A stretch of DNA of 64,000 bases from a virus, in UHGV virus genome UHGV-1363143. One strand, written 5' to 3'. Each line of letters opens with the position of its first letter. Within the stretch, counting starts at the first letter, position 1. The translations under genes were made by a program, and so were the position numbers. The notes below the pieces were generated by a model that worked only from the letters and a program-made list of their open reading frames with translations, had not been told where the DNA came from and did no database searches. This document shows positions 13,165-59,530 of the stretch, piece after piece.

Positions 13165-13195
13165 AATATCTTTCCTTTCTAATTGTTATTTGTTA

Positions 13196-13226: not shown

Positions 13227-13232
13227 AAGTAC

Positions 13233-13523: not shown

Positions 13524-13541
13524 CTACACCACGACAGAAAT

Positions 13542-13592: not shown

Positions 13593-13601
13593 TTATATGT
13601 A

Positions 13602-13787: not shown

Positions 13788-13812
13788 AACAACACCTCCT
13801 AATACAATGATA

Positions 13813-14262: not shown

Positions 14263-14472
14263 AATCTTTTCTCCTCTCTATGATTCCCCTAAGTCAAGAC
14301 ACCTGGGGCTAATATTCCTTCATTTTCATTTATACATATATATCTAGTGCCTCCAGAAATTTTTTAAAATTTTCAATTCCTATATAGGGAATTTCCTTTT
14401 TGTTCCAGCGTGTATAGAAAGAAGTTATTACAGTAATAAAGTCATGAAGCTAACAAAAAAGGAGTGATTTTC
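14263..14472. promoter_or_regulatory. divergent intergenic region between the leftward accessory block and the rightward structural operon
   Basis: 210-nt AT-rich gap between oppositely oriented genes; promoter boxes not confidently identified. Confidence 0.3.
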
Positions 14473-34504: not shown

Positions 34505-34530
34505 TGGATAAAAACAAAGGAGGAACAAAG

Positions 34531-37500: not shown

Positions 37501-37539
37501 GAAGTTAGAAATAGGCTATCAGTAAAAGACAATCAATAA
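34531..37539 (+). CDS. tail sheath protein, unusually large (about 1000 aa)
   Basis: N-terminal ILGTAFNGPVGKPVKIYSPEHAKYVFG is typical of sheath N-termini. C-terminal 250 aa (GVIGCSKLMTANL ... GFVTVKNSYTQGYVITDGVTMAP ... RIVNGIDEAIR) resembles the sheath C-terminal domain. AAGGAGG precedes the ATG at 34531. Confidence 0.8.
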   Translation: MSVFDQELILPGVVTDILSDYSAGYDTSQFGTTDSVAILGTAFNGPVGKPVKIYSPEHAKYVFGSAFDFQTRREATLVAEIQDAWDRGCRTIYAVRVSGKEIHKDFQLASDADCKLRVSGIFPNNDNKNVFFEFDAVDTLSEVANGAEPTIKIYKPATRATIEEKMLGKVVKENSVLVNSVKLRSNWNVSETTRLVDFIDLFNEYRYNNVLRLSIVDGEGNDITETPVAQGLAFGDLFPGIYFIGRDKNSAKIIAKTEMETRFVPEEDKHTIYENFAGNIFKTLKVNTDITKDLPIYHKDVTELNRLISKVEDVTMVKLFDFLEVPGKVDLIWAKDKVDYEEVAVDDFDMYKRLGSGYATSAKIVETKEGTGVYKVVEVTSDNDVNRVIPINDGIYSMLENLRADYRVLAGKYADIEIKGKLPKKAEFLVSNPKSSSIFSETVRVVPKLDVKDLSTVSKNYKFILKSLEEDSIILSSDAVIETLYKKNGSYVVSEYIHEVDEIEGLDAKQYKEGDLVLADAKMHRVVNGAFVCLDDIAIYKSEFAGKLFVSNKMIYQVDESSNDKLTFIELVDVNELGGATLMNVNIDGQVVVFSIETEEELVKSVTPIASLSDILEESSSMFTVITPVSVEGKVVNEVEIKALNLEATSLGELIISMNEDAVLGKMFEFDLDPGLAELVRYIPVLGVTEDDESVFGVAVDGVVDVESNKINSAKGNPTIVDRGLPVYDKSLYLPFKTTDNFARHLAQHCVYTGLKTAPTHGVIGCSKLMTANLKTVSDRVDKLVGLDLNLYAKRPNGNDMLDKNNLPYPIGRGISVTFFQNKVETGDNYTYVSVGASGYAGMVSTLPIDQSSTSQPINIDTTTFELNNYQLGRLTQAGFVTVKNSYTQGYVITDGVTMAPVTSPFRRLAVTRIVNGIDEAIRAAAEPFIGKQNHLANRNSLQTAIKSSLDKMVNQLIEKYDFKLIVDRAAERMGIIEIEYTIIPIYEIREVRNRLSVKDNQ

Positions 37540-37603: not shown

Positions 37604-38266
37604 ATGGGAGCAAATAGTTTTGAACAATATACTAAAACTTATAGCACATTCTCAGGATGTGATATCGTTGCTACATTCAATGGTAAGGTAATTGGTGAAC
37701 TTCAAGCCATTACTTATAGCATTTCTCGTGAAAAAGCCCCTGTTTACACAATGGGATCAGCTGAACCAAGATCTTTCTCAAGAGGTAAGAGAGGTATAGC
37801 AGGTACACTTGTATTTACAGTGTTTAATAGAGATGCATTAATAGAAGAATTTAAAGGTAAGTTAAATGGAGAAACAACTGGTGTTCAAAAGTTTAAAGCT
37901 GAAAGAAATTCTGAATCAGATGTTAACTTTTTATCAGTAGAACAATGGGATGCTGAAATGTCTAACTACGCTGGAGTAGGAGATCAAACTGGAGCAGCTA
38001 TTGGAAATGTTTCTGATTTAACATCTAAGTATCAACCAATATATGCAGATGAAATATTACCATTTGATATTACTATCACATTCGCCAATGAATATGGACA
38101 AAGAGCAGTATTAGTAGTATACGGAGTTGAACTTTTAAATGAAGGTTCAGGTTATTCAATAGATTCTGTTACTACAGAGAAGGCATATACATTCGTTGCT
38201 AGAAAGATTGATTACATGAAATCTTTAGATGGTGACAATGATGCAGGATTCTCTTCAACTTACTAA
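37604..38266 (+). CDS. tail tube protein (XkdM/gp19-like)
   Basis: 220 aa directly after the sheath gene. FSGCDIVATFNGKVIGELQAITYSISREKAPVYTMGS ... RGIAGTLVFTVF matches the tail-tube family pattern. Confidence 0.75.
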   Translation: MGANSFEQYTKTYSTFSGCDIVATFNGKVIGELQAITYSISREKAPVYTMGSAEPRSFSRGKRGIAGTLVFTVFNRDALIEEFKGKLNGETTGVQKFKAERNSESDVNFLSVEQWDAEMSNYAGVGDQTGAAIGNVSDLTSKYQPIYADEILPFDITITFANEYGQRAVLVVYGVELLNEGSGYSIDSVTTEKAYTFVARKIDYMKSLDGDNDAGFSSTY

Positions 38267-41103: not shown

Positions 41104-41104
41104 C

Positions 41105-42268
41105 ATGAGAGCTCAAGGAAATAGCTATTTATCAAATAATATAAATATAAGCAAGGATAGATATATAACTTTAAATAGTGAGAATCCAGGCAATAAAAAA
41201 AGACTTGGTGATAGAACTTTATTTTCACATTCTGTAGACGGAAAAAGATATTACTCTAGTTTAGATGCTGAAATATATTTTGGAGAAACTTACATTGACA
41301 ATGTTGTTCAAATAAGCTGGGGAATAGAACAGGCAACAATGCCATTGTTTGGATATAACTCATATACATTTGATGATATTGCAATAGGTGCAAGACAGAT
41401 TAGTGGAAGCTTTGTAATTAACTTTACTAAATCAGGATTTATGTATGATGTATTAAGAAGTGTACAAGCTGTTAATAGGTCTACATTAAATGTTCCTGAA
41501 AAACTGAATGATCCATCTAATTTAAATTGGACATCACATTTTGACAAAGAACATAAGGCTTCATGGGATAGAAGTTTTAATATTAGAGTTGGATACGGAG
41601 ATTACAATAAGGAAGGTAAAGACACATCAATGATTGTGCTTTATTGTGTTCAAATAACTGGATGTCAACAAGTTATTGGTGTTGATGGAGCCCCTATTGC
41701 TGAAGCATATACTTTTGTAGCTAGAGATGTAAGATATGATGTTAAAGGAATTCCAGAGAAAGATGCAGTTAGTAATGATAAAAACGATTCTGATTCTTCT
41801 AATGACTTACCTCAAAGTCAATTCAATATATTAATAGTTCCAGTAGGCATTACGGAAGTAGGAGGTTCATCTTCAAATAAAGATAGTTCTAGTAATACCA
41901 ATACTGATGTTGATGCAATTACTGGAGCTGCACCTATACCGCCAAATCAAGTTACGCTTCCTAAGTACTATATAAAAGTTAAATATAGTTGCGGTGGAGG
42001 AGAAGTCAATGATATTAAGCTTACTATGAAAAGAGAAAATGGAGAAATAATAAATACATCAGCATTATCAATAGGTAATAGCAATGAAATAACTTATGAG
42101 ATACCAAGAGAATTCCATGGGAAGATCAAGAGAGCATTTGATTCTCAGAAATCGCTAGGAGCAACTAATGTGTACTTGAATTGTGACTTCAGAGTTATTT
42201 ATGCTATAAATGGAAAAATTCAATCACCATATAGTAGTACTAATAAAAAAGTTTACCTGACACAATAA
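41105..42268 (+). CDS. third tail-tube-fold paralog with C-terminal extension
   Basis: N-terminus SHSVDGKRYYSSLDAEIYFGETYIDNVVQISWGIEQATMPLFGYNS ... RQISGSFVINF follows the same tube pattern. ATG at 41105 (the ORF-track start at 41093 is TTG). Confidence 0.5.
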   Translation: MRAQGNSYLSNNINISKDRYITLNSENPGNKKRLGDRTLFSHSVDGKRYYSSLDAEIYFGETYIDNVVQISWGIEQATMPLFGYNSYTFDDIAIGARQISGSFVINFTKSGFMYDVLRSVQAVNRSTLNVPEKLNDPSNLNWTSHFDKEHKASWDRSFNIRVGYGDYNKEGKDTSMIVLYCVQITGCQQVIGVDGAPIAEAYTFVARDVRYDVKGIPEKDAVSNDKNDSDSSNDLPQSQFNILIVPVGITEVGGSSSNKDSSSNTNTDVDAITGAAPIPPNQVTLPKYYIKVKYSCGGGEVNDIKLTMKRENGEIINTSALSIGNSNEITYEIPREFHGKIKRAFDSQKSLGATNVYLNCDFRVIYAINGKIQSPYSSTNKKVYLTQ

Positions 42269-43573: not shown

Positions 43574-46500
43574 ATGAGCAGATTAAATGACGAAGATCAA
43601 CACTCCTTTGGTAAGGCTACGGCTGTTCTGACTGGTATGGTTGGGGCAGCCGCTTTTCATAGATTAGGGGGAGCTAAGGCCATTGCGAAGGGAGTGCCTA
43701 AATTAACTAGGTTTGCTAGTAAGCTAATGGACGATGTAGCTGAAATGAAACTTAAGGATTATGATGCTGAAGGAATCAGTAGACTTTATAAGAGTCATAT
43801 AGCTGATGATAATAGTACTTGGAAGTCCTTAAAAAATCTATCAGATGAAAAGATAAAGCTTGGAGTTACTGGACAAAAACCTGTTGCAGTTATATTAAAT
43901 ATGTTGGAGATACAAGCCAATAGCAGAGATACTATGAGAAAGGTATTTAATGCAAATTATGCTGATGAAGTAGTAGGTAAACTTGATAAGAAATATAAAA
44001 TCATAGATGATGAATTTAAGGACAAACTTGATGATCTTACAAGACATGTAATCGAAAAGGATGATTTAACATTATTCACAGATAAAGATGGTGTAGTAAC
44101 AAGAAACAGTGATTTAATAAAAGATTTTATTGATCCAGATGAATTTCATTTAGGTGAACAAGAAGATGAATTCTTTAAGGATTTAATAGGAGCAATAGAA
44201 AATAAAGAAAATGCTTTTAAAGAATATGTAGAGAACCATAAAGATGAGGATGGAACTTTAGATCTTGTAAACAACATAAAAGAACAATTAACAGGTAAAA
44301 GTTTTGCAGAGGCTTTTGGAGTCTCTGGAGATGAATCTATAATAGACAATACTATTAAACAAAGTAGAGGACTTACTTTTAGAGATTATGTAGATAACCT
44401 AGATAAATTCGATGACCAAATTATGAATCTTGGTGGCGATAATTATATTAGTTTAAAAGATGAGATTAAAAAGTTTGTTGAAGAGAATGAAGAAATCAAA
44501 GATGTACTTATTGACGCTAAAAACCTTAAGATAGATAAATCAGGAAATATAATTGATTTTCAAGAAGTAGATGAATTAAGAAAAGGTTTTTTAGAAAAAC
44601 TTGCTGGAACACTTCCAGGTAAACTAGCAAAGGTCACAGACTTTCTTAGTGTTGAAGAAGCTGGAGCAATTAACTTTTTCCAAAAAGGTAAAGCTAATCC
44701 TCTTGCTAACAATGATGGTACAAATAAAGGCAAGGATAATATAATTCAAATTTTAAATAAGTATTATAAGATAGATAAAAATAATAATTTATCTCATATG
44801 AGTGAATTAGATGATATGTACTCAAGATCTAACAAACACGGTACTGTTCCTCGTATGTTGGGTAAAATGTTTGGTACTGAATCAGAATATGAGGCTATTA
44901 ATAAAATAGCTAAAAAACTTGATATAGGAACAACTACAGAAAGAACAATATTAGATGATTTATCTAAAGAGGGCGGAATAGTAGGTAAATATGCAAGAAG
45001 TGTAACTGGAGTAGAAAGATATAACGTTATTGATAAAATGCTAGATGCTAGTCTTGCAGAAAGTGATGCTATAGCATATAGAAAAAATCTTAAGAATGTA
45101 AATCAAATCTTCTCTCATATTGCTAAAGCTCCTAACATGAAAACACTAGCTAAGATGGAGAATGTAGTTACTAATGATATGAGTAAAGATATACTTCAAG
45201 CGTTAATGACTAATGACCAGGAAGAGATGGTTTCTACACTATCCAAGTATACTAAACAGCTTAGGAATAAGGATTTGAAATCTCTAATAAAAACTGGTGC
45301 CTCTAATAGAGAGAATGCAGCTCGAATGCTATCAATAAAGAGCGATAGAATTACGGATGCTAAAAATATTATGAAATACAAAGACATGATTAAAAGGGAA
45401 GCTTTTAAAGAAGTTTTAATATCTGAGACAATTGATGAAGTTTCAGGAAGTGTTAATCATAATAGAATGTTAATTAAGTTAAGACAAGCTGGAATATCAG
45501 GAAGTTCATATGAGAATGCCAAGAATTTAGGACACTGGGCAACTCTTCAAATGAAAGGAAAACTTTTTAATAATGATGCTAAAGAGAAAGGACTTGAAGC
45601 GATCAAGGAAGCTAACAATGATGTTCTTGAACTTTTAACATCTATTAGAAAAAAAGATACTATTCCAGTAAATGCTGAGTACGTAAAAGACTTTAGAAGT
45701 ACTGTAGACAAAATAAGGGATAATTACAGCGAACTTACTACTAGAACAACAGAAAGAAATATCAAAGCTAAGAAGATTAGAGCACAAGCTACAAATGATA
45801 TGATGATTATGCGTAAAGCATATACCCCTAGTAGTTATGTAAAAGACATGATTAAAGATATGAATGATATAACAAAAATGAAAGCCAATACTAAAAAGTT
45901 TGGTATGCAATTTATTGCTGGCAAAGATAATCCTGAATTTGTTACATCATACACTATGATACCATATTTCTTTAGTCAAAGACTTACAGAACCATTTGCA
46001 AATTACGGCCTATCATTCTCAAGCAAGAATATGAAGAGTACTCCTGATATGTGGAAGGCGATAATGATGAAAAGAGTTCTTCCAGCAGCAGCAGGTATCA
46101 CCGCATTTAATTACTTAAATTATGAAGCTAAGAACTTAACTGGTACTAGCATAACAGGTGCAATGGCTCAGGGGATAGCAAATGTAGATCTTGGCCTAAG
46201 AAAGATAGCTGACATTACTGGAGCTGGAAAATTACTTGAAGCAGAAAGAAGATTAAATCCTATTTCTCAATACTGGCTAGGAGAAGATTATCAAAATTCT
46301 GCTGAAAGAAAAGATTATTACGAAAATGGATATGATGAAGTCCGTAAAGGAAGATGGTGGGCATTCGGTTCTGCTTCTGAATTTAGAGGTAGTAAGATTG
46401 CATATTATCAACCTAATTTCGTTAAGAGAGCTAATAGTGATTGGAAAGATATCGGAATATACGGAAGTTCAAAAGAGAAATGGAAACATTCTTGGATACC

Positions 46501-49500
46501 AACTCCTAGACATCCATTTGCTCCAATAAGAAGAGCATTAGATCCATACTGGCTTGAAAGAAAGAACTATAATGATAGACCTTATCTTGAAACTGCGCCT
46601 TTATTCTCTACTGGTACTCCTTGGGGAGCTGTATTGAATCCTACAGTAGGTCAAATAGTAAAACCTATTAGAAAGATGCATAGGGATGAAACTAGAAGAG
46701 GCTTAGTTGATCCTCGTACTTTAATCCGGGAAAGAAATGAAAGATTAAAAGCTAAAGCTCAGGATAAGCAACATGGCAACCTTATTCAAATATCAAAAGA
46801 TGGAATAAGTAATGTATCGTATACCCCTTCTGCACTTGCGGATCCTGACAAAGCAATGATAACTTTAAGAGCTGGAAATGGAAAAATACAAAGTGTAGAT
46901 TATAATGGTCTTGATTATACAGAAGGTATTGGCCACATATCAGAAGGTGGAATACCAGTAGATAACCCTGCGGGAAACAATGGGGCATTTTATGTTGGAA
47001 GAAATGCGAGTGCTGAACCTAAAACGGGGTTGATAGAGGCTTTTGAAACAACAGCATTAGGCTCATTTATAAGCAATGGTGTAAGAAAGTTTATAAGTCC
47101 TGTAGAGACTCTAAGGGTAACTAATGAAGGAATTAAGGGTAAAGCAGCAGCTACAGACGGAACTGTTATACAACAAGCTAACCTTGCTAAAATGCCATTC
47201 AGACAAGCGACTCAAAGAATGACTACAAAACAAGAAGAGGCTGATTTATTATTAACTACTTCTAAGCACGATTTTATAAATGACACACTATTCTCTGCAA
47301 AACAATTATCAGGTATATATGGATTCCTTGGAGGGCTTATATACTCAGATGATAAAAAGAAGGTAAGACCAGAAAGTGCTGAGAAAATGTCTAGCTTTAA
47401 ACGTAGTTTCTGGGATGCAAATGTCGGAGGTCTTGGTGGCGGTATAATGGAAATCTCTAGAAGATTTTTCCCACATGATGACCATGCATGGACAGATATT
47501 AATCCAATTAGAAATACTATGCCTGAATGGATGCCAACTAGATTCCAAACAGGGGATCCATATACTAAAGTTCCGAAGGGAGAAATGAGACTTCCAGGAA
47601 AGGGATATGAATCTATTCATAAATTAAGATCTGATGAATACGGAAGATATGGTGCTCTTGATAGAATGAGGATATTAGGAGATATAGCTCCGTGGTCAGA
47701 AGAATACAAACTGTGGAGAGATATAGCAAGTAAATCAATTACTGACGAAAAAGGTAAGAGAGAAATACAAGACATAAAGAAGAGAGTTGAAAAACAAAGT
47801 AGATCACATGAATTTTATAATTATAAGTTCCTAGGAAATCCTACAGAGATAAATACTGAAACTATTGAATCAGTAGAAGGAACTAAAATTACCACTACAT
47901 CAGGTAAACAATATAGCATGGCTGGAATTAAGCTTGGTAAAAATACAGATATAAACTCACACTTAGCCGCTGGAATGAAAGTTCAAGTAGAACACTTGAA
48001 GAAGGATAAGGGCATTGATGGTTCTATATCAGCAGCTGTATATGTTAATGGAGAAAATATAAATCAAAAGCTTGTTAATTCAGGTGAAGCAAAAAGTGAT
48101 ACTAGTACAGCTATGGGAGCAAAAGCTTTAACTGGTCAATTTAGTCAATTCTATGGTGCAGCAATGGAAGCTATTGCTCATGCTCCTATTCCATTTGTTC
48201 ATAACAAAGTGATGAAGATAGATACACCATTAGAATCTTATAAAAACGAAAGAGTTTATGGTACTCCATATAGTACATGGGATCATCCTATTAAAGGATT
48301 TATTATGCCTTCATTCCAAAAGGACTGGGCAAGAGGCCCTGTAGGACAAGGTATTGCTCTTGGTGCTTGGGTATTAGCTGAGCAAACTTGGAAGAATTCA
48401 AGTAAAACTTCTGAAGCATTAAAAAGAATAGGAATTAATTTATCAGAAACTGGAGTTAATAGATTAGCAAGTACTATATTTAATGTAGCTAATCCTGGTG
48501 CATTTGCTGGTTCAATGATGGCGGCAATACCTACTGGACTAATGGGTAACAGTGAAGGTATTAAGGGATTATTTAGTTCCGCAATATTTGGAGCAGGAGT
48601 TAAACCAGGTGTTGGTAGAAATGGTGCTAGATTAGGTGCAACAGCTATGATAGCTGGATATGGATTAACAAGATCTGATAAGCCTATTGAATCGACAGCT
48701 ATATTCACTGTAGCTGGTATGGCATTATCTAAACAGTTAAATCATAAAGCATTTAATACTAAACAAGGTGCTATAGCTGGTGCTACTACTGGATTATTAA
48801 TATCTGCAATTAGGAATCCTAGATTTAATAAAGATAAAATGTTTGGAAAATACACACCTGAATCAACTAAAAAGAGATGGGATATAGATGAGTATTATGA
48901 CAGACTTGAATATATAAAATATAAGGGCCTATACGAAAAAGCTGCAAGAAAAGCACGTATATGGGAAGGCACAAATATTAAAAAGATTATCAATGCAAAT
49001 GAATACCAAAGAGGAATAAATAAAAAGAAAATTGAAAAATTAAACAATAGGCTAGACAAAGTAAGTAATAGTAAACTAGAGGACAACAGAAAGGCTGAGA
49101 TAATCGAAAAGATTAATCAGCAAAAATATCGACTTAGCACATCTGAACAGACATTTAGGGCTGGGAAATATACTAAAGCCGCTATTGCATACAAACAAGC
49201 GGCGGAAAGTACTATCTATGGCTTGAAAGAAGATGCTACTTCACAACAAGTAATGAGAGCAATTCCAAAAGGAGATAAAGATTTCTTCATGGAATTTGCT
49301 AAAGAAAAGAATAAGAAGAAGCAAGATGAAATACTAAAATATGTATCACCTTATCAAAGAAGAGCATTACAGATAGCTTGGGGACGAAAGAAGATTGATA
49401 AAGTAGAAGATAATGATGATTACTTTAAAGGTCACTTTATGCCAGGAGTGTTCTGGGCAGGATGGAGTCCACAAGTTGATATGGAACATGTTAAGATGAA

Positions 49501-49810
49501 GACTATCGAAAATGAAGGAATGCTTTTAAGTGATTTTGGAATATATGAATCTCAAAGCAATGAGCCATCGGCAATAATGGCTCCAACAGTTGGAAGATTT
49601 GATAGTGCAAATACTAGCGGTCTTGGATTACAAGCTAGACTTCAAGGTGCATTAAATGGAGCAGGATTAATGGGAGTTAAAGTTAGTGTAAGTCCAACAT
49701 CGGCTAACGGGATAGAAGTAATGGCGAACATAACAAACGCTGCAAAAATTACAGAATATAAAGTTAGGGAAGGCATAAATAAAGTAGTCGGAACAAGATT
49801 GTTTTATTAA
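43574..49810 (+). CDS. tape-measure-like giant protein (2078 aa)
   Basis: Position after the chaperone-position genes; long K/E-rich helical regions; Gly/Ala-rich hydrophobic segments near aa 1590-1730 typical of tape-measure TM regions. Confidence 0.5.
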   Translation: MSRLNDEDQHSFGKATAVLTGMVGAAAFHRLGGAKAIAKGVPKLTRFASKLMDDVAEMKLKDYDAEGISRLYKSHIADDNSTWKSLKNLSDEKIKLGVTGQKPVAVILNMLEIQANSRDTMRKVFNANYADEVVGKLDKKYKIIDDEFKDKLDDLTRHVIEKDDLTLFTDKDGVVTRNSDLIKDFIDPDEFHLGEQEDEFFKDLIGAIENKENAFKEYVENHKDEDGTLDLVNNIKEQLTGKSFAEAFGVSGDESIIDNTIKQSRGLTFRDYVDNLDKFDDQIMNLGGDNYISLKDEIKKFVEENEEIKDVLIDAKNLKIDKSGNIIDFQEVDELRKGFLEKLAGTLPGKLAKVTDFLSVEEAGAINFFQKGKANPLANNDGTNKGKDNIIQILNKYYKIDKNNNLSHMSELDDMYSRSNKHGTVPRMLGKMFGTESEYEAINKIAKKLDIGTTTERTILDDLSKEGGIVGKYARSVTGVERYNVIDKMLDASLAESDAIAYRKNLKNVNQIFSHIAKAPNMKTLAKMENVVTNDMSKDILQALMTNDQEEMVSTLSKYTKQLRNKDLKSLIKTGASNRENAARMLSIKSDRITDAKNIMKYKDMIKREAFKEVLISETIDEVSGSVNHNRMLIKLRQAGISGSSYENAKNLGHWATLQMKGKLFNNDAKEKGLEAIKEANNDVLELLTSIRKKDTIPVNAEYVKDFRSTVDKIRDNYSELTTRTTERNIKAKKIRAQATNDMMIMRKAYTPSSYVKDMIKDMNDITKMKANTKKFGMQFIAGKDNPEFVTSYTMIPYFFSQRLTEPFANYGLSFSSKNMKSTPDMWKAIMMKRVLPAAAGITAFNYLNYEAKNLTGTSITGAMAQGIANVDLGLRKIADITGAGKLLEAERRLNPISQYWLGEDYQNSAERKDYYENGYDEVRKGRWWAFGSASEFRGSKIAYYQPNFVKRANSDWKDIGIYGSSKEKWKHSWIPTPRHPFAPIRRALDPYWLERKNYNDRPYLETAPLFSTGTPWGAVLNPTVGQIVKPIRKMHRDETRRGLVDPRTLIRERNERLKAKAQDKQHGNLIQISKDGISNVSYTPSALADPDKAMITLRAGNGKIQSVDYNGLDYTEGIGHISEGGIPVDNPAGNNGAFYVGRNASAEPKTGLIEAFETTALGSFISNGVRKFISPVETLRVTNEGIKGKAAATDGTVIQQANLAKMPFRQATQRMTTKQEEADLLLTTSKHDFINDTLFSAKQLSGIYGFLGGLIYSDDKKKVRPESAEKMSSFKRSFWDANVGGLGGGIMEISRRFFPHDDHAWTDINPIRNTMPEWMPTRFQTGDPYTKVPKGEMRLPGKGYESIHKLRSDEYGRYGALDRMRILGDIAPWSEEYKLWRDIASKSITDEKGKREIQDIKKRVEKQSRSHEFYNYKFLGNPTEINTETIESVEGTKITTTSGKQYSMAGIKLGKNTDINSHLAAGMKVQVEHLKKDKGIDGSISAAVYVNGENINQKLVNSGEAKSDTSTAMGAKALTGQFSQFYGAAMEAIAHAPIPFVHNKVMKIDTPLESYKNERVYGTPYSTWDHPIKGFIMPSFQKDWARGPVGQGIALGAWVLAEQTWKNSSKTSEALKRIGINLSETGVNRLASTIFNVANPGAFAGSMMAAIPTGLMGNSEGIKGLFSSAIFGAGVKPGVGRNGARLGATAMIAGYGLTRSDKPIESTAIFTVAGMALSKQLNHKAFNTKQGAIAGATTGLLISAIRNPRFNKDKMFGKYTPESTKKRWDIDEYYDRLEYIKYKGLYEKAARKARIWEGTNIKKIINANEYQRGINKKKIEKLNNRLDKVSNSKLEDNRKAEIIEKINQQKYRLSTSEQTFRAGKYTKAAIAYKQAAESTIYGLKEDATSQQVMRAIPKGDKDFFMEFAKEKNKKKQDEILKYVSPYQRRALQIAWGRKKIDKVEDNDDYFKGHFMPGVFWAGWSPQVDMEHVKMKTIENEGMLLSDFGIYESQSNEPSAIMAPTVGRFDSANTSGLGLQARLQGALNGAGLMGVKVSVSPTSANGIEVMANITNAAKITEYKVREGINKVVGTRLFY

Positions 49811-50314: not shown

Positions 50315-50554
50315 ATGATTAGTTATGAAAACATAATGTTAGAAAAAGAACAAGAATTTGAACAACTTACTGCTCATGCAAAAGAAAAAGAAAATATTCA
50401 CAATGAAGAGATGGCTCAAATTCAAGAAGAATTATTAAGAATTCAAGGCGAGTATAGAATGCTTGCTAAATTAAAGGAGCAATCTGAAGCAGCAGAAACT
50501 GAAGCAGTAGAAAATACTGATACAGAAGATGCGAAAATTATAGAAGCAGAATAA
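50315..50554 (+). CDS. small acidic coiled-coil protein
   Basis: 79-aa ORF. Confidence 0.35.
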   Translation: MISYENIMLEKEQEFEQLTAHAKEKENIHNEEMAQIQEELLRIQGEYRMLAKLKEQSEAAETEAVENTDTEDAKIIEAE

Positions 50555-50569: not shown

Positions 50570-50597
50570 AGACTTAGCTTATGCTAGGTCTTTTTTC
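50570..50597 (+). terminator. rho-independent terminator
   Basis: AGACTTAGC-TTAT-GCTAGGTCT 9-bp stem (one G:U pair) followed by T6. Confidence 0.6.
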
Positions 50598-50647
50598 ATA
50601 TTAAATAACAGAGAATAAACAGTAATTAAGTAATGAGGTGATGGAAA

Positions 50648-53600
50648 GTGAGATCTCGTATTAATGTATTTGAGCACAATAAAAAAATTGAAAATAGAAT
50701 AAAATCAAGAGAAGCCATAGTCAAAGAAGAGTTCGGTGGCAAAAGCGGAGAGGCTTTAGTTGAAGAAGTTAATAAGAGAATGGCTATGGCATATATAATG
50801 GACAATGATTTTAAAAAGAAATATATAGAGTTCGGAAAAGACTCTGTTATATTAGGATCAAAATATGTAGATGACGCTGTTAATAAATATGCTCCTATAA
50901 ATGGCATTAAACAAACTTATGATGATATAAGACCTATGTTTAATTTTGTTAACAATATAAGCAATCATCTTAAATCAAAACAGACAGGTAATGAGCTTAT
51001 ACTTAATGCTATAGAATTAAACAATGGAATGAACTACAGTAAGATTTCCACTAAAGCAAATATGTCAGTAACTTCATTAAATAAGGCATATGATAATTTT
51101 AAAAAATCTGAAGAGTTCTTTGTATTTGACACTGAAACATTATCAGGTATGGGCAAAACAGGATATAACGAACTAGATAGATTACAAGAAATAGCATTCC
51201 GTAAGTTTAAAAAGGTTGATGGAAAGCTAGTAGAAGATGAAGCTTCAAGGGTGGAAACACTTATAGGAATAACTCAAAAGCAATACGATGAATATATGGA
51301 TATCTTCGTAAATAACTTTAATGAAAATGGATGGCAAGGAAATCAAAAGTACGAAGTAATCGCAGGAAGATTTGCAAAGCTTGGACATAAAGATACTGTT
51401 ATTAAAAATGCTGGTAAAGGATTAGCTATAACAGAAAGTTTTGCTAGTGATGCTAGTGAGAACTTAATGGATGTAAGCAATATTAAACGAGGGCTTGAAA
51501 GAGCTCTAGAAATAGGAAAAAGACAAGATGCTGAAAGACTATCTAATGGCTTAATGGTATGGGAAGATCAGTTATTAAGAAGTGTAAAAATATTTAATGA
51601 AAACTTTGTAGCTGGATTTAATAGTACAAACTTTGACTTTGAAAAGATGAATCAATCTATTGGTACTGTATGGAACAGTATGAATTCAACTCAAAAAGCA
51701 GAGTATAGCAAAATATTAAATCTTAAAAACGGAACAGTTCCTGTAATCAATCCTATTGAAGGAAATTATTTAGACTTTAGAGATGTTGTTAGAACTGCTG
51801 CTGAATCAATAGGTAAAACAGGCATCTATGGTAATGATAATGAAAAACTTAAAACAATTAAAGGTATAGGGAAGACATTATTACAACAAGAATCTCTTGG
51901 TGAAGTATTTGCTAAAGATGCAATGTTCACAGCAGCTCATACAGCAGGTGCCGACGTTACAACGTTAGCTCACCTTATGGGAGGCAAGGAATTAAACGGA
52001 GCTTCTTTATTTGATGAATTAATGACTACAATAAATAAGAATGCTTCAGCCTTAACAGGAAAAGTAGATTACAATTCTGTATTAATGGCCACTCAAGGAG
52101 AGTTTTTCAATGACTTTACTAGAAAGGGTGCTCTTAACTTTACAACAGATAGATCTAGTGGTGCGATAAGGACGTTCAATGGAATGTCACTAGATGCAAA
52201 TGGAGATGTTAGAGATTTAGGTAAATTCGGTAAAGCGACAGGATTAAAGAAAAATGTAGCTTATAAGATTGGATTTATGGGCGAAATGGATATGTCTGAA
52301 GACTGGATTAAAAAGATGTCAGGTATACACCAAGACTACGCACAAGGAAAGTTGTGGGTTGCGAAATTTAATCCATTAATAGATAAAACAATAGCTGGAG
52401 ATAATTCTATTTTAGAAGATCCTACTACATATTTCTTTACTTCTAAAGAAGCAATGGAGGGATTTGTATCAAGCCATTTTGCACATGTAGGTAATATAGG
52501 CACTGATGGTAAAATAGAAGATTTAGCTGATCCTGCAGCTAGAGCTGAGGTTCAAAAGCTATTTGGAGTTCATACAATCAAAGATGGAAAAGTTAGTGAA
52601 GCCGCAACACAAACAGCTAGTGAATTAGTATCCAATGGAACTATACAAGCAATGAATGATCCAGCTGCTAGAATGATAAGAGAAAATGAATACACAAAAG
52701 CTATAAAGTTTCAGAGAATGCAAGATTACCTAAAAAAGAATGGTGCTACAACTATTGATGAACAAAAGAAGATGTTATCTTTAGCAACTGCAGAGAATGT
52801 TGCTGGAGGAAAAACATTAAAGATTAAACATGATGTTTTATCAATATTAGGATTCCAAGATAAAGAGGTTAATAAGCAAGTCCTATATTCAAGTACTTTA
52901 AATAATACTATTAATAGTTATGGATATATGGCTTCAAAAAGAAATGTTATAGATTCTCTTGTTGAAGCTGTTAAGGAATATGGAAATATAGGCTCAGAAC
53001 AGCAACAGTTTATATATGATTCATTAATGAGAGGGTTAAGAGAAGATGCAGCTAATGCTATAGCTTCAGGAGATTTAGAGAAAGAAGCACTAATCAATGG
53101 TTCAAGTGAACTAAAGGTATATGCAAAGGACCTAGATTATTTTGAATTTGATATGCCAGAGGGCTACTTTAAAAACACTAATGCAAAAGCTATGCCTGGA
53201 GAAATAGATAATGTACTAAGGGTTAATCTTAAGTCAGAAAAAGAATATTCTCTAGTCAATGATTTATTAAGAAGACGTAGAGGAAATGATGATAGGCTTA
53301 AATCTCCTAATGCAAGACAAGCATATGGAATGCAAGAACTTAGAAATTTTGCTAATACAGTAAACTCATTAGAAGAGTATAAAGGAATATTTGATGATAT
53401 CTTATATGGCAAGCCAGTTAATGAACTTAAGAATTTAGCTAATTTAAAGAAGTATGAAAAGAGTTTATTAAAAGATGAATTGTATTCTTCATTTGATAAT
53501 GTAGTTAATAATATAGTTAACAATAATGAAGAAGTTATTGAATCAAGAGCTTCTTTAGAACAACTTAGAAAAAGAAGGATAGAACTTCAAAACTTTATAA

Positions 53601-56600
53601 ATGAAAATAACGGAAAAAGAAATTCATTAAGACCTGAACTTGAAGTTCTAAGTAATGAATTTAAAAATACTATATTACCAGATGATCAGTGGCAATCATT
53701 ACTTCCAGATGATAAGAGAATAATTAAAGAAAAGCAAAAAGACATAATGCTTAAACAGAAGGAATTACTTTCAACATTTGATAATAGTGATTTATTTACT
53801 GAACTTAGTGAAATTGAAAGTAACATGGAAGAACAATACAACCATCTATTTAATGTATTGGATATCTCAAGATCAAATGCAAAAACTTCTTTAAAAGAAA
53901 TGTTTTCAACAAAAATTAATAATAAAAATAAAGAGATTGATGAAGTATTCAATAAGTTAAATGAAGTTATCTCTACTGTTCCAATTGAAGCTGATATAAG
54001 TGTTGATGCTATGTCAGAAAAGCTTATTCAAGCAATGAAAAACTTTAGAGAAAATAATCCTTCTTCAGGTTTTTCAAAAGACAGAGTAATACAAAATGTC
54101 TTAGATAGTGATGAATTACTATCAACACTTGATGATGATTTTGTAAAGAAGTCTATTGAAAATACTAAGAGCAATTTGCCTAATCTAAAGCTTATTGATG
54201 TAAACAATAAAAATGAAGTTAAGTCATATGCAGAAGAGATCGTAGATAGCATATTAATGCCTACAGTAAAGGACTCGGATGGAAATTTACTTAAGAATAT
54301 AGATGATATAGCAACATTCGCTCAAAAAACATATGGCTACAATGAAACTACAACTAAGCTATTTAAATATAATCTTCAAATGCAAAGAGAAGAACATGTC
54401 AAAGGTATCTCTGATCTTGTAACAGCAGTTGGAAGAAAAAATGGATTTATAACTTATGATAAGTCAACCTCTGAATTGGGAATGAGAATAGGTGGCGAAA
54501 CATATAACCTATGGGGTATGCCTAAGACTAGAATTGAAAATGGTACTTTATTTATTGCGAATGGACAAGGCAATTTTGCTTCAGGATTTAAACTGGATGT
54601 TCAAGATGCAATAGATGGTAAGAGACTTAATCGAGGCAAGGTTGCAATAAAATCTGATTTAGCAGATTCATACAAGGAATTAAGATCCCTTAATTATAGG
54701 TTAGATAGAGCTGCTGCTAGAGGAGATGATTTAGGTAAAACTGTTATTGGTGCAGTTAGCAACGTAGCAAGTAAAGTAAGAGAATTATCTGCTTTAGGTT
54801 CAATGACAACTAAAGATTCATATGCATGGCAAGGAATGGATTTAAGCGAAGGTATTTTGTCAATGCCATACATGTTGGATGAGATTAAATCATATGACGG
54901 TTGGCAAGACGACGATTTTATAAAAATCTTAGAAAGAAATAAGAATAGGATACTTAATGGGAATATAACTTCAGAAGTTCAAGAAGCATATGCTAAAAAT
55001 AAACAAGATGTAGTAAAAATGCTTTTAGGTATTGGTGCAGGAAATGAAAATAAGCAAAGAACTGTTCAAGAGTTTATTGCAGGTAATATAAGCAATTATA
55101 CTAAGGATGGGAAACTAGCTGTAGGTAGAGCAATGGTAGGAGAATATTCTCCAATGGCTATGACAGAATGGGACAATCCATCACGTCCACCAATAAGTTC
55201 TGCTGATGAAATTTTGTTCAACAAAAAGAAATTAGATGATATAATCAATGATCCTACAAAAGGATTGAAAGGTAGAATAGAAACTGGCTCTAGAATAGTT
55301 TCTACTAGACAAGGTGCTGGAAGAAAATTTGATGGAATAGGCGAAGTGGCAACTGGAGTTACATTTAAAAATGCTAATATTTCAGAAAAGAAATTCAAGG
55401 AAATTATAAGTGATAAGTTCGAAGAAGAACTAGAAAAAGTAAATCCTAACTCTAGTAGAGCGGAATGGCTAGAATCACTTAGAAGACAAATGAGCGGACT
55501 TAACTTGACTGAACAAGGTAAGCTTATTGATGGTAGAGTTGCAGATGCTTTATTATCTGAAACAGAAACGCAAAGAATTAATACATTTAAGAATTTTAGT
55601 AGAGACATGAAAAACAATACTAAAATTATGAACGATAGAATAAAAAAGGCAATGCCTACTATAGAGATTGCTCAGTCAGGAGAAATTGTATTCAAGCTTG
55701 GTAAGAAGGATTACGTAAAACGTGGCGACGCATTATTTGCTATAGATGGATATGGAGATGTTCTTGATACTATAGGAGTAAAAGAAGACGCTGGATTATT
55801 TGGGTTTGGATATAATTCTAAGGGAAGTAATCTTGCAGTTGGAGAAGATGAAATATCTAAACTTCTTAACAAGAATAAGAATAGAATACTAAATGCAGAT
55901 GGAACAATAAATCAAGATAAGGCTATGCGATTATTAAATGAATCTTTTGATAGTGGATTCTATGTAAAGAATGCGTTTGTAAAAGGATACAATAAGGGTA
56001 CAATCGAGTATGCTGAAAAAGGTATGTACGATGCATTGGTATCTGGAGCAGGTACTTTAGATAACAGAGTTGATAAGTTACTTGAAGCTGTCGGTATGAA
56101 AGAAGCTAGTGGTAAGGTTTTAAGTGAAGATTTTATAGATTTAATAGCTGAAAAATATTCTGGATTGACCGCAAAACAAAGAAGTGATTTAGGCTTTGCA
56201 GGTGGTTGGAACCAAGTTAAAAATGCTATTAATAAAGAAAAGTTTGCTAAAACTGACTTCATTAGAGAGATAGATGCATTTAAAGATATAGTTGCATTTA
56301 CTAATGACAATGTAATTAAACATGGTAATGCAGGTATCGCAATGAAAGGACTTATTAATAACATTACTGAAAAGTATATGATTGATGATAAGTTATCATT
56401 TGAAGAAGCTTCCAAGAAAACTGTTGATATACTAAACAAGGAAATTATTATAGATAAAAGTACTGGTGAAAAAGGCAAAATATTTAATGGAGTAGATATT
56501 TCTTTTAAAGACGGTAAGATTCATATTGGTGAAATAAAAGATACACTGAATGCAACTATAGACAAATACGCAGTACAAGCTTTAACTGATGAACTAGGGT

Positions 56601-59530
56601 TATACGATAAGAATAGTCCATTTGCTATTCGTGATAAAAATGGAAATGTAGTTGGATACACAACTACTTTAACTACTTCATTTAATGAAGACTTCTCTGG
56701 AACTTCTAGATCATCAATAGAAAAAGATAAAATAAAGAAAAACTTAGATAACAAAAAGGAAAAGTTAAGGGCATTAAATCCTGAAACTGATTCAGTTAGT
56801 TACAATGCTTTAAATGAGGAAATTAAAAACTTAGAGCATTCATATAGGGCTGCTAAGAACTATGATAAAACAATGACAATATCATCAAGAGAAACTGACA
56901 TGATGAGCCTATATGAATATGATGAAAGTAAAATGGCGAAGGTCAGAGAAAAGCTTGGTGGCGATTATAACAAAATATATAAGAGAATGTTAGATGAAGA
57001 TGGTCGTATTAATTCAGAATACACTGGCAGAGCAATACACCAAGGGTTCCTTGATGACATAGAAGACAAGGCATTTGAACAAGCTGTTGAGAATAAAAAA
57101 TATTTTGACAGTGCAAAAAATGCTATAACATACAATAATAGACCAGGACTAGGTACAGACTTCATAAAAGATAATAACTTTGAAGAAGTTAAAATAGGCG
57201 ATTTAGTAATTCCAAATGGACATGACACAAAGTTCCTTGAATCGGATCCAAACAGATCATTTGGAAGAAACTTATTGGTAGACACAGGGCTTTCAGGAAA
57301 TGATAGATATGTAGCAATTTCTGCTAACAACTATTCAATAACTGGAGACGATGTAAATACAGATGAAGTTCAAAAATCTTTAGCCAAATTACAAAGAGCT
57401 AGTAAAACTCTTGAAGATGGAAGAAAGGGAATTAATGGTGCATTAGATAATGGCACTACTGTTAAAGATCTAGAAGCAAGAGTTAGAAATGCAGCTGATG
57501 AATTAAAAGAATCTGTAGTTGGTTCTATGAGAAAAACTCTTGGTGGACTTGATTCAGTTCAACTTGGAGGATATTCATATGAAAAAGCTACTATGGCTAT
57601 GCTGGATCCAGATAGTCTAAAGAAAGCTATGGAAAATGGTAACTTCGATAAGAAAGCCTGGAATGGATATAAAATGTATGGAGTCTCTAAGATTAATGGA
57701 AAGACTCTTGGTGAATGGGCAAGCCAAGGAGTTCACTATGATGCATCATGGCATGGTAAACAATATTTTAAAGACCTAGGATACTTTGATAAAGCTGTAT
57801 GGAAAGATAAGTATAAAATGAAGTCTGTAGACGAAATGATAGAATATCTTAGGGTTAATGGTACAGCAGGAATAGAACTGCGTACACCTACGATTAAAGA
57901 AGGTTCTATGTCTGTTACAAGACAATATCTTGACACAGATTTAAAGGATGGTCAGGCTAAAGCTACAGCCTCTCTTGTTTTTGGAAGAAATCAGGACCAT
58001 GATGGAGATAGTGTTATACAAGCTGAATTAAGACATAAAGACTGGACATTAGCAGACTATGAAATAGGAATGAAAAATAACCCTAATAATGTTCCTGAAG
58101 ATGTAAAAAAATACTATGAAGAATTAAATGCTGCCCAAACATATAGAGCTAGTACAATAAACAATAAGATATATGAAAACGTAGCAGTTCCAACATACAA
58201 TGACGATGTAAAAAATGCATTAAAAAACGCAAATGTTAACAAAGTACTTGCAAGTGAAAAAGTAAACCTTAATGGACGATATATTACTCCATTCTCTCAG
58301 GCTGAAACAGATACAGCATTAAGAAATGATTATCTTAAAAAGTATGGAGAAATAGAAGAGTCATTAATCAGTAAACTAGGAAAAGAGAAATACAAATCTC
58401 TTAATGTTATAGAAAGAGCAAAAGAAATAGATACTCATATTGCTGGTTTAGCTGATGACGTTAAAGATGGATATAGAACTGCAGCTAGATTCGTCGAAAT
58501 TTATGAAAAAGATATGTCAGCAGTAATGTCTAAAGTAGCTGGTAAAGCTTCTATCGGATATATTAATACACCACTAGCCTCATTAAGAAGGGCAGCAGCA
58601 GTAGAAGGATTTTCTGGAGATCAACGTAAGTATATCCAAGCAGCAGCAGATATACTAGAACAAAATATCATATCTAAGAAGCATAGTACAGATTATGCTA
58701 TATCTTTAGCTCAGACTTTTAGATCTAGTCTTAATGATATGTTTGAAGGGAAAATATCTGGTGCTAATAATGTAAATAGGTTGATAAGAGAAAATTATTC
58801 TGGAGCTATGGTAGAAAAGCTTAAAATATTTAATGATATTGACTTTTCAGGAGTAGATGATGAAGAAATCCTAAATAGAATAACTTCAACTATATCAGAT
58901 GTTGGTAGAGCAGCTAGTAATAATAGTAATTTTAGAAACATCATAAAAGCAGAGAACGCTAAAAATTCACTAACAGCAAGCAATATGGAAGATGTATTAT
59001 CAGGAATATCTGAAAGAAGTACAGGACATAACAAATCTCTCGCAAGAGCTAAATACAATGGAGGATCTACATCATCAGTAAATGCTTCAATTGATATGGA
59101 TGGCTTTGAATCTTCGGCAAAGAAAGTCATTTCATCTGCTTCTGAAGTTATAGATGATATGGCTAGAAGTGTAGGCGGTAGTGGATTAGCAAAAGCTGCC
59201 TTAGGTATAGCTGGAGCAATTATGGCTGCAGGTTATATTGGAGGTAATCCAACAATAGCACCTGGAACAGAAGCTCAAGATTTAGATAGTTATGATTCCC
59301 TACAAGACAAGGACTTATCTATACAACAACTCCCTCAGGGAACTGGACAAGGATATGTAATAAACATTAATGCTCAAAGTGCTAGAGGCCAAGATCATGC
59401 AATTAAAGCAATTCAACAAGCTATGCAATCAAGTGTGACTACTGATATTAATATAGCTATGAATGTAAATGATAAGACAAACACTATAAATAGTAGATAT
59501 ATAGACAAACTATTGTCTGGTGCAATATAG
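50648..59530 (+). CDS. giant protein (2960 aa): N-terminal DnaQ-like DEDDh 3'-5' exonuclease domain; C-terminal region with RNA-polymerase-like DPBB motif (candidate virion RNA polymerase)
   Basis: Exo I VFDTETLSG ... LQEIAF, Exo II VAGFNSTNFDFEKM, Exo III AAHTAGADVTTLAHL (about aa 155-440). RTPTIK then 38 residues to NQDHDGDSV (nt 57881-58012) parallels beta-prime RAPTLH ... NADFDGDQM. GTG start with GAGGTG 7 nt upstream. Confidence 0.7.
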   Translation: MRSRINVFEHNKKIENRIKSREAIVKEEFGGKSGEALVEEVNKRMAMAYIMDNDFKKKYIEFGKDSVILGSKYVDDAVNKYAPINGIKQTYDDIRPMFNFVNNISNHLKSKQTGNELILNAIELNNGMNYSKISTKANMSVTSLNKAYDNFKKSEEFFVFDTETLSGMGKTGYNELDRLQEIAFRKFKKVDGKLVEDEASRVETLIGITQKQYDEYMDIFVNNFNENGWQGNQKYEVIAGRFAKLGHKDTVIKNAGKGLAITESFASDASENLMDVSNIKRGLERALEIGKRQDAERLSNGLMVWEDQLLRSVKIFNENFVAGFNSTNFDFEKMNQSIGTVWNSMNSTQKAEYSKILNLKNGTVPVINPIEGNYLDFRDVVRTAAESIGKTGIYGNDNEKLKTIKGIGKTLLQQESLGEVFAKDAMFTAAHTAGADVTTLAHLMGGKELNGASLFDELMTTINKNASALTGKVDYNSVLMATQGEFFNDFTRKGALNFTTDRSSGAIRTFNGMSLDANGDVRDLGKFGKATGLKKNVAYKIGFMGEMDMSEDWIKKMSGIHQDYAQGKLWVAKFNPLIDKTIAGDNSILEDPTTYFFTSKEAMEGFVSSHFAHVGNIGTDGKIEDLADPAARAEVQKLFGVHTIKDGKVSEAATQTASELVSNGTIQAMNDPAARMIRENEYTKAIKFQRMQDYLKKNGATTIDEQKKMLSLATAENVAGGKTLKIKHDVLSILGFQDKEVNKQVLYSSTLNNTINSYGYMASKRNVIDSLVEAVKEYGNIGSEQQQFIYDSLMRGLREDAANAIASGDLEKEALINGSSELKVYAKDLDYFEFDMPEGYFKNTNAKAMPGEIDNVLRVNLKSEKEYSLVNDLLRRRRGNDDRLKSPNARQAYGMQELRNFANTVNSLEEYKGIFDDILYGKPVNELKNLANLKKYEKSLLKDELYSSFDNVVNNIVNNNEEVIESRASLEQLRKRRIELQNFINENNGKRNSLRPELEVLSNEFKNTILPDDQWQSLLPDDKRIIKEKQKDIMLKQKELLSTFDNSDLFTELSEIESNMEEQYNHLFNVLDISRSNAKTSLKEMFSTKINNKNKEIDEVFNKLNEVISTVPIEADISVDAMSEKLIQAMKNFRENNPSSGFSKDRVIQNVLDSDELLSTLDDDFVKKSIENTKSNLPNLKLIDVNNKNEVKSYAEEIVDSILMPTVKDSDGNLLKNIDDIATFAQKTYGYNETTTKLFKYNLQMQREEHVKGISDLVTAVGRKNGFITYDKSTSELGMRIGGETYNLWGMPKTRIENGTLFIANGQGNFASGFKLDVQDAIDGKRLNRGKVAIKSDLADSYKELRSLNYRLDRAAARGDDLGKTVIGAVSNVASKVRELSALGSMTTKDSYAWQGMDLSEGILSMPYMLDEIKSYDGWQDDDFIKILERNKNRILNGNITSEVQEAYAKNKQDVVKMLLGIGAGNENKQRTVQEFIAGNISNYTKDGKLAVGRAMVGEYSPMAMTEWDNPSRPPISSADEILFNKKKLDDIINDPTKGLKGRIETGSRIVSTRQGAGRKFDGIGEVATGVTFKNANISEKKFKEIISDKFEEELEKVNPNSSRAEWLESLRRQMSGLNLTEQGKLIDGRVADALLSETETQRINTFKNFSRDMKNNTKIMNDRIKKAMPTIEIAQSGEIVFKLGKKDYVKRGDALFAIDGYGDVLDTIGVKEDAGLFGFGYNSKGSNLAVGEDEISKLLNKNKNRILNADGTINQDKAMRLLNESFDSGFYVKNAFVKGYNKGTIEYAEKGMYDALVSGAGTLDNRVDKLLEAVGMKEASGKVLSEDFIDLIAEKYSGLTAKQRSDLGFAGGWNQVKNAINKEKFAKTDFIREIDAFKDIVAFTNDNVIKHGNAGIAMKGLINNITEKYMIDDKLSFEEASKKTVDILNKEIIIDKSTGEKGKIFNGVDISFKDGKIHIGEIKDTLNATIDKYAVQALTDELGLYDKNSPFAIRDKNGNVVGYTTTLTTSFNEDFSGTSRSSIEKDKIKKNLDNKKEKLRALNPETDSVSYNALNEEIKNLEHSYRAAKNYDKTMTISSRETDMMSLYEYDESKMAKVREKLGGDYNKIYKRMLDEDGRINSEYTGRAIHQGFLDDIEDKAFEQAVENKKYFDSAKNAITYNNRPGLGTDFIKDNNFEEVKIGDLVIPNGHDTKFLESDPNRSFGRNLLVDTGLSGNDRYVAISANNYSITGDDVNTDEVQKSLAKLQRASKTLEDGRKGINGALDNGTTVKDLEARVRNAADELKESVVGSMRKTLGGLDSVQLGGYSYEKATMAMLDPDSLKKAMENGNFDKKAWNGYKMYGVSKINGKTLGEWASQGVHYDASWHGKQYFKDLGYFDKAVWKDKYKMKSVDEMIEYLRVNGTAGIELRTPTIKEGSMSVTRQYLDTDLKDGQAKATASLVFGRNQDHDGDSVIQAELRHKDWTLADYEIGMKNNPNNVPEDVKKYYEELNAAQTYRASTINNKIYENVAVPTYNDDVKNALKNANVNKVLASEKVNLNGRYITPFSQAETDTALRNDYLKKYGEIEESLISKLGKEKYKSLNVIERAKEIDTHIAGLADDVKDGYRTAARFVEIYEKDMSAVMSKVAGKASIGYINTPLASLRRAAAVEGFSGDQRKYIQAAADILEQNIISKKHSTDYAISLAQTFRSSLNDMFEGKISGANNVNRLIRENYSGAMVEKLKIFNDIDFSGVDDEEILNRITSTISDVGRAASNNSNFRNIIKAENAKNSLTASNMEDVLSGISERSTGHNKSLARAKYNGGSTSSVNASIDMDGFESSAKKVISSASEVIDDMARSVGGSGLAKAALGIAGAIMAAGYIGGNPTIAPGTEAQDLDSYDSLQDKDLSIQQLPQGTGQGYVININAQSARGQDHAIKAIQQAMQSSVTTDINIAMNVNDKTNTINSRYIDKLLSGAI

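Follow-up and report, generated by a model that had tools for sequence, protein, structure and literature searches.

Single-chain RNA polymerases (RNAPs) built on two double-psi beta-barrels (DPBBs) are rare, and to our knowledge the characterised phage families are YonO, crAss gp66, and P23-45 gp96 and gp64. Such enzymes have been used to reason about the origins of cellular RNA polymerase and of the polymerases of RNA interference. Eight residues are invariant in all two-barrel RNAPs: R446, P448 and the DxDxD triad of Rpb1, and D837, K979 and K987 of Rpb2 (PMC2919709). The selectivity loop of RNAPs reads RxPxLH, with the Arg contacting the ribose, and is accompanied by a full DxDGD, whereas the PolD counterparts are GLAPHT, which includes a steric-gate His, and NCDGD (PMC7708050). 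The term polyvalent proteins, in turn, covers multidomain proteins that are injected and whose genes lie next to virion genes (PMC5512222). Here we analyse a 64,000-nucleotide stretch of the UHGV virus genome UHGV-1363143 (the window) and, within it, a giant open reading frame (ORF) of 2960 residues at 50648-59530 on the plus strand, which has a GTG start and runs uninterrupted to its stop codon (included in the coordinates). We annotate its product as a polyvalent protein with a predicted exonuclease and two-barrel polymerase, and we propose, with a probability of roughly two in three, that it represents a family of single-chain two-barrel RNAPs that is new and most likely packaged in the virion.

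The beta'-type catalytic barrel lies at residues ~2396-2470 (57833-58057, plus strand) and contains R2412-T-P2414, S2420 and N2448-Q-D2450-H-D2452-G-D2454. A first-pass annotation, made from the letters of the window alone, had reported an ORF of 2960 residues at 50648-59530 with an RNAP-like catalytic motif near its C-terminus, and translation of the ORF agrees with this. The translation from 57881 is RTPTIKEGSMSVTRQYLDTDLKDGQAKATASLVFGRNQDHDGDSVIQAELRH, in which the motif reads RTPTIKEGS...GRNQDHDGDSVIQAELRH; the codon of R2412 occupies 57881-57883, NQDHDGD is encoded at 57989-58009, and the motif spans residues 2412-2454. The motif and its coordinates were thus reported correctly, but the string quoted with them begins two codons earlier, with EL. 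The frequency with which such a motif arises by chance was estimated from 20,000 shuffles of the giant protein itself, which is rich in D, K and N. DxDGD by itself was present in 9% of the shuffles and the loose pattern [RK]xP-x(20-100)-DxDxD in 16%, while the full pattern RxP-x(30-45)-NxDxDGD occurred in 1 of the 20,000. On its own the motif is only suggestive, and it is conservation and fold that decide.

The giant protein belongs to a large, coherent family that is annotated in no library searched. A word-indexed protein search returned 17 homologs of 2709-3133 residues, all of the same architecture and without Pfam domains; the only source name among them is 'hypothetical protein', which is also the label of the one NCBI nr member listed. 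With a profile of residues 1600-2720, an exhaustive HMMER search extended this to 208 proteins, each representing a cluster at 50% identity. Almost all of them have 2700-3300 residues and are matched at a corresponding place along their length, and 144 reach E<=1e-30. No protein of YonO size was present among the best 150 of the 208. Family members share as little as about 20% identity. An identical protein is encoded on a 238-kb JGI contig, and a relative of 84% identity on a 241,249-bp IMG/VR contig. Blastn and tblastn searches with the giant protein and two distant relatives gave no match in 50,697 GenBank phage records, a pattern scan of GTDB genomes gave none, and the full-length profile (alignment A1) found only a spurious coiled-coil match in the PDB. 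A literature search, which left much of the subscription literature outside its coverage, found no published description of the family.

Residue conservation was assessed in about 150 family representatives aligned to the profile of residues 1600-2720. Only 9 of about 1100 positions are 100% invariant, namely K1783, K1791, G1802, R2412, P2414, D2450, D2452, D2454 and K2678. S2420 and G2453 are conserved at 97%, and G1716, E1790, H1892, E1864, G2405 and G2637 at 97-99%. The five catalytic residues of the barrel (R2412, P2414, D2450, D2452 and D2454) are invariant also in the further family alignments A1, A3 and A4, and K1783, K1791 and K2678 in A3 and A4. Since these residues are conserved across the family, we read the motif as a genuine catalytic site; the first-pass reading had been made to depend on conservation of the three Asp in homologs, and none of the representatives departs from them. 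The distance from the Arg to the first Asp of the triad is 35 residues in E. coli beta'. In the giant protein 38 residues separate R2412 from the first Asp, compared with 33 in Rpb1 and 45 in QDE-1 (PMC2919709). Seven of the eight superfamily-invariant residues have counterparts in the family, with matching spacing.

Profile searches and modelling assign the barrel to the beta'/Rpb1 type. Among 177,635 PDB sequences, the best match to a 75-residue profile of residues 2396-2470 (alignment A5, built from 40 diverse members) was the non-virion RNAP (nvRNAP) subunit gp55 of phiKZ (E=0.0079), followed by two sequences of the AR9 nvRNAP beta' subunit (E=0.22 and 0.24) and by A190 of yeast Pol I (E=0.52). 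All four are beta'/Rpb1-type catalytic barrels, matched with the R-x-P-T, the next Ser and the N-x-D-x-DGD in register, and the Asp triad aligns with the NADFDGD of phiKZ gp55, AR9 beta' and Pol I. In one-by-one scans of these 40 members against Pfam, RNA_pol_Rpb1_2 (PF00623) was the only family to match more than two of them (3 of 40, best E=1.2e-4). These three matches are below the gathering threshold and the giant protein itself has none, so they indicate homology and not curated membership. A first AlphaFold model, based on 11 sequences, was poor (predicted local distance difference test, pLDDT, 65; predicted template modelling score, pTM, 0.34), and its Foldseek matches, mostly to beta' chains at E~0.1, were no more than suggestive. 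The second, based on 30 diverse sequences, reached a pLDDT of 83.7 and a pTM of 0.79, and gave 31 Foldseek matches in the PDB at E<=1e-3. The best 50 matches were all RNAP beta' chains, from mycobacteria, E. coli and Thermus and from the AR9 and phiKZ phage enzymes, with probability 1.00. The modelled catalytic domain has the double-psi beta-barrel fold. Tail-fibre and baseplate folds were absent from the Foldseek list, and no tail-fibre, baseplate or tape-measure family appeared in the Pfam and PHROG searches. Profile matches, invariant residues and modelled fold together uphold the beta'-type catalytic DPBB that the first-pass annotation had suggested, and the conditions that it had named as refuting this reading did not arise.

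A second, beta-like barrel is a candidate at residues ~1664-1812 (55637-56083, plus strand). The region is strand-rich and confidently modelled, with a helical insertion of ~35 residues, and contains a basic loop, YNK(1783)GTIEYAEK(1791)GM, within 'YNKGTIEYAEKGM'. K1783, K1791 and the nearby G1802 are among the invariant positions, and G1716 and E1790 are 99% conserved. The two lysines are eight apart (seven in a few family members), and the same K-x7-K spacing is seen in Rpb2 K979/K987 and Thermus beta K838/K846 (PMC2919709, PMC7708050). Our inference of a second barrel draws on the two invariant lysines, on secondary-structure prediction and on the length of the alignments to single-chain two-barrel enzymes. 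A search upstream of the catalytic motif for a second DPBB with conserved basic residues, as proposed in the first-pass annotation, thus yielded the invariant lysines, but no sequence match to beta or Rpb2. The beta-like segment named there, SFGRNLLVDTGLSGNDRYVAIS (57257-57322, plus strand; SFGRNLL, residues 2204-2225), was rejected as a beta-type catalytic loop: it is moderately conserved (G2214 87%, A2223 97%) and has no invariant Lys or Arg, and residues ~1664-1812 are the better candidate. KHGNAG at residues 1891-1896, ~100 residues past the lysine pair, superficially resembles the beta RHGNKG loop, and its H1892 (window ~56321-56323) is about 99% conserved. It was dropped as the counterpart of that loop, K1783 and K1791 being fully invariant and canonically spaced. 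Beyond the catalytic barrel, a helical region at residues ~2480-2720 (58085-58807, plus strand) contains the invariant K2678 (in EQNIISKKHS), G2637 and N2640, and forms long helices at model residues 1004-1053 and 1058-1080. It is a candidate equivalent of the bridge helix, trigger loop or funnel.

The protein's N-terminal part has a probable DEDDh 3'-5' exonuclease domain at residues ~150-445 (51095-51982, plus strand). The DxE, D and Hx4D of DEDDh exonucleases occur there in order, as ExoI FDTET (D161, E163), ExoII NSTNFD (D330) and ExoIII HTAGAD (H431, D436), with an insert of about 140 residues between ExoI and ExoII. The five residues are invariant in close homologs and conserved at >=90% in 66 full-length relatives. 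A profile of residues 141-464 found TREX-like DEDDh exonucleases as best match (E=0.002), with the three Exo motifs in register and many TREX1 entries next. The D-E-D-H-D of the three motifs is common to TREX1, RNase T and DnaQ epsilon, whereas the giant protein differs from these in the ~140-residue insertion and in having only sub-threshold Pfam matches: RNase_T (PF00929) was found in 1 of 20 members, at E=0.05. Nor did the literature search, within the coverage given above, turn up any account of a fusion between a DEDDh domain and a two-barrel RNAP.

In the mechanism that we propose, residues ~1600-2720, the C-terminal ~1100 residues, would make up a nucleotide polymerase of the RNA polymerase type, with two barrels in a single chain. 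The beta'-like barrel would supply the Mg-binding D2450, D2452 and D2454 and the ribose-sensing R2412-x-P2414, and the upstream beta-like barrel most likely K1783 and K1791, which would hold the RNA 3' end and the phosphates of the nucleoside triphosphate. The helical region with K2678 would probably provide bridge-helix or funnel-type elements, and the N-terminal DEDDh domain (D161, E163, D330, H431 and D436) a 3'-5' exonuclease activity. The packaged enzyme would be ejected with the DNA and would transcribe the earliest phage genes without need of the host polymerase. The beta'-type barrel, the invariant catalytic residues, the family's size and the synteny are direct findings, while the second barrel, the role of the lysine pair, the synthesis of RNA and not DNA, packaging, ejection and the role of the exonuclease are deduced. 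We propose a virion-packaged role because the gene lies in a late structural block between giant ORFs, because this order is kept in distant relatives, and because the protein ends in a hydrophobic segment and a C-terminal module that are both conserved. Packaging as such is suggested only by where the gene stands among the structural genes and by the conservation of that position. The layout would fit the polyvalent-protein pattern and the precedents of crAss gp66, P23-45 gp96 and the N4 virion RNAP (vRNAP).

Several results weigh against this proposal. As a single sequence the giant protein had no match in Pfam, PHROGs or PDB sequences. The TM-scores of the Foldseek matches were low (about 0.1), with only the core superposing. 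Profiles of the candidate beta-like barrel, whole or loop only, gave only chance matches (S100, PPR) in the PDB and Pfam, and for the acid of the Rpb2 D837 or QDE-1 D709 type there are candidates in E1790 (99%), E1864 (98%) and E1622 (94%), none of them assigned. Furthermore, YonO is a phage two-barrel RNAP but not a virion enzyme, and a late-operon position is therefore no proof of packaging.

This last point leads to an alternative in which the protein is a genuine two-barrel RNAP that is not packaged, but made late and active in the cell, for instance in late-gene transcription or in producing regulatory RNAs, as YonO is for SPbeta. Phages are known to encode single-chain RNAPs of the YonO type, those of the jumbo phages 0305phi8-36 and c-st among them, for which evidence of packaging is absent, and packaging of the giant protein is deduced from context only. 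An enzyme confined to the cell would, however, account poorly for a size of ~2900 residues and a polyvalent architecture, for the conserved hydrophobic segment and C-terminal module, and for a gene that invariably stands between two other giant ORFs within the structural block. Size, C-terminal features and position fit injected cargo, as in polyvalent proteins (PMC5512222), crAss gp66 and P23-45 gp96, and we regard the unpackaged enzyme as unlikely. If on the other hand neighbouring genes are taken at face value, the protein could itself be structural or ejected (a tape measure, inner body or tail fibre), with the DPBB-like motif an inactive relic, and the roughly 1100 residues at ~450-1600 that have no assigned function would leave room for such a role. 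But a relic would not keep its catalytic residues 100% invariant at as little as about 20% identity, and no tail-fibre, baseplate or tape-measure family was matched, which leaves this explanation barely credible.

Two further alternatives concern the product of the polymerase. The combination with a DEDDh domain would suit a two-barrel DNA polymerase or primase-like enzyme with proofreading, a bacterial-virus analogue of archaeal PolD. In the family, however, the invariant R-x-P is followed by T, N or S and never by His, in place of GLAPHT with its steric-gate His, and the full Asp triad, usually preceded by N-x, stands where PolD has RR-NCDGD. We therefore take the polymerase to be of the RNAP and not the PolD type; membership of the PolD DP2 family was rejected on the same grounds, GLAPHT and NCDGD being absent and R-x-P-[TNS] and the full DxDGD present. 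The gene also lies in the structural and not in a replication module, and a PolD analogue is highly improbable. The DxDGD loop would also allow an RNA-dependent polymerase of the QDE-1/RDR type, making double-stranded RNA or small RNAs. Against it, multisubunit-type beta'/Rpb1 barrels score better in every search, the K-x7-K spacing is that of DNA-dependent enzymes and not that of QDE-1 (R738/K743), and a double-stranded DNA phage has no obvious need of such an enzyme; we hold out very little prospect for it. The packaged single-chain RNAP accordingly remains our preferred reading.

Within this preferred reading, cooperation of exonuclease and polymerase is a tentative and rather doubtful idea, for which two modes can be envisaged. 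YonO and other minimal two-barrel enzymes are without intrinsic, trigger-loop or Gre/TFIIS-dependent cleavage. The exonuclease may serve as a dedicated 3'-end proofreader for RNA; if so, it would replace such cleavage and provide a DNA-virus parallel to coronavirus nsp14. Alternatively, it may resect the first-entering DNA end and expose a single-stranded template for a promoter-poor virion polymerase, which is conceivable because crAss gp66 prefers single-stranded or denatured DNA. We know of no two-barrel RNAP with either an exonuclease-linked mode of initiation or an exonuclease-linked fidelity mode.

Other segments of the giant protein are also conserved. Residues ~450-1600, about 1100 in all, have no family assignment. 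They include a helical insert rich in K, E and N at residues 919-1111 (193 residues; 53402-53980, plus strand), which is present here and in the homologs P0006, P0007, P0009 and P0013, and cleanly absent, as a 193-residue gap, from P0002-P0005, P0008 and P0011. P0002-P0005 are otherwise 82-84% identical to the giant protein, and the insert seems to be a whole module that was gained or lost recently. Its absence from homologs explains an alignment coverage of 63% in the homolog search. Near the C-terminus, a Kyte-Doolittle scan located a transmembrane-like, Ala/Gly-rich segment at residues 2841-2866 (59168-59245, plus strand), which is the sole strongly hydrophobic stretch of the protein and is conserved across the family. 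It is followed by a C-terminal module, 'QGYVININA...', at residues ~2895-2960 (59330-59527, plus strand), with conserved columns in alignments A1, A3 and A4, which is possibly a determinant of packaging or ejection.

The start of the giant ORF is sound, since its N-terminal 'MRSRIN' is kept among homologs. Signals read from the sequence are a ribosome-binding site, GAGGTGAT, at 50635-50642 (plus strand) upstream of the GTG, and, at 50570-50597 (plus strand), a terminator-like hairpin plus T-run, which closes the small gene before it. That gene, at 50315-50554 (plus strand), lies directly before the giant ORF and encodes a small acidic coiled-coil protein of 79 residues, which may be a chaperone or partner protein. 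Two small ORFs in total separate the giant ORF from an upstream ORF of 2078 residues (43574-49810, plus strand) without Pfam or PHROG match. The latter has several hydrophobic stretches rich in Gly and Ala and stands at the expected position of a tape-measure gene.

The giant ORF is encoded within the virion structural module. Genes for terminase (20491-22275), portal (23639-25936) and major capsid protein (29129-30337) lie upstream on the same plus strand, followed by genes for virion proteins and for a sheath protein of 1011 residues (34504-37539, plus strand). The sheath protein is unusually long, with the sheath-family match confined to its C-terminal ~260 residues, and an ORF of 348 residues upstream of it (32805-33851, plus strand) has a weakly sheath-like C-terminus. 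Directly after the sheath gene are three plus-strand paralogs with an N-terminal phrog_9206 domain (37604-38266, 38362-41103 and 41093-42268; 220, 913 and 391 residues). The label of phrog_9206 is 'major head protein', but given their position directly after the sheath gene these are likelier tail-tube or tail proteins than capsid proteins. Downstream of the giant ORF, another giant ORF begins at 59672 and runs off the window at 64000 (plus strand, >1442 residues), and probably encodes another ejected polyvalent protein. Reading its sequence by eye, we noted a staphylococcal-nuclease-like 'IRTIGINAPE' near the N-terminus; residues 445-693 match phrog_20474 ('endolysin', E=7e-67), and a DUF6046 match is sub-threshold. 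The same order is kept in locus L001, which encodes P0017, a relative of 22% identity, in a series of 2129, 101, 2977 and 2985 residues; the 101-residue protein (9618-9923) is the counterpart of the small coiled-coil protein, and the proteins of 2129 and 2985 residues are those of the upstream 2078-residue ORF and of the downstream giant ORF. The placement described in the first-pass annotation, after tail-type genes and beside other giant ORFs, is found here, and the giant neighbours recur in L001.

Further observations concern the window as a whole. Its G+C content is about 32% throughout. Gene orientation flips at about 14 kb, from the minus strand (~1-14300) to the plus strand (14464-64000), and the GC and AT skews change sign. 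An endolysin with Amidase_2, SPOR and PG_binding_1 domains is encoded at the strand-switch point (14464-15645, plus strand). Among seven leftward ORFs, which include proteins of 685 and 660 residues, no match was obtained to PHROGs (five tested) or Pfam (five tested).

If the proposal is correct, it adds to the few known single-chain two-barrel RNAPs a family that comprises over 200 clusters (50% identity), from uncultured sheathed phages of ~240 kb. The combination of exonuclease and polymerase would offer a testable means by which a minimal transcription machine could proofread or prepare its template. A further implication is that certain jumbo phages outside the phiKZ group may do without host RNAP in early infection, which matters for host takeover, for evasion of defence, and for annotating giant 'hypothetical' ORFs in phage metagenomes.

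Compared with known systems, the catalytic barrel is nearest to the multisubunit-type beta'/Rpb1 barrels, including those of jumbo-phage RNAPs, and looks closer to these than to the YonO/QDE-1 clade. The largest subunits of multisubunit enzymes (bacterial beta', Rpb1/RPA1, vaccinia rpo147, phiKZ gp55 and AR9 nvRNAP beta') have the same R-x-P...N-x-D-x-D-G-D at comparable spacing. The giant protein differs from them in being one chain of 2960 residues in place of separate beta and beta' subunits, with ~660 residues from its candidate basic loop to the Asp triad, no detectable likeness beyond the core, no evident sigma, alpha or omega partners, and a fused exonuclease. With YonO of the Bacillus prophage SPbeta and the YonO-like RNAPs of 0305phi8-36 and c-st it has in common a single chain, a low-GC phage and RxP...DxDGD, but YonO has 839 residues, lacks an exonuclease and is not known to be packaged, and the YonO-like enzymes are of a much smaller type. 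Membership of the YonO family was rejected after hhalign gave a probability of <=1.3% and aligned only 7 columns, the DxDGD. The DFDxD without Gly and the QDE-1-like connector of the crAss gp66 family were likewise not found in the giant protein. Membership of the YonO or the crAss gp66 family, with whose enzymes the first-pass annotation had compared the motif, was not detectable.

In organisation, the giant protein has parallels among virion enzymes. phi14:2 gp66 of the crAss group (PDB 6VR4) is a very large two-barrel enzyme in one chain, as proposed for the giant protein, and its gene likewise accompanies structural or cargo genes; the enzyme is packaged and transcribes early genes, and serves as the functional model for the giant protein. 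gp96 of the Thermus phage P23-45 (PDB 8H2M) is a virion RNAP fused to the tape measure and without a clamp, whereas the giant protein has large insertions and is a separate ORF downstream of the 2078-residue ORF. The polymerase domain of the vRNAP of coliphage N4 is T7-like, with a right-hand fold, and is unrelated to two-barrel enzymes. N4 vRNAP and the polyvalent proteins are nevertheless similar to the giant protein in plan, as giant (~3000-3500 residues) multidomain proteins whose genes neighbour virion genes and which reach the cell together with the DNA to initiate transcription.

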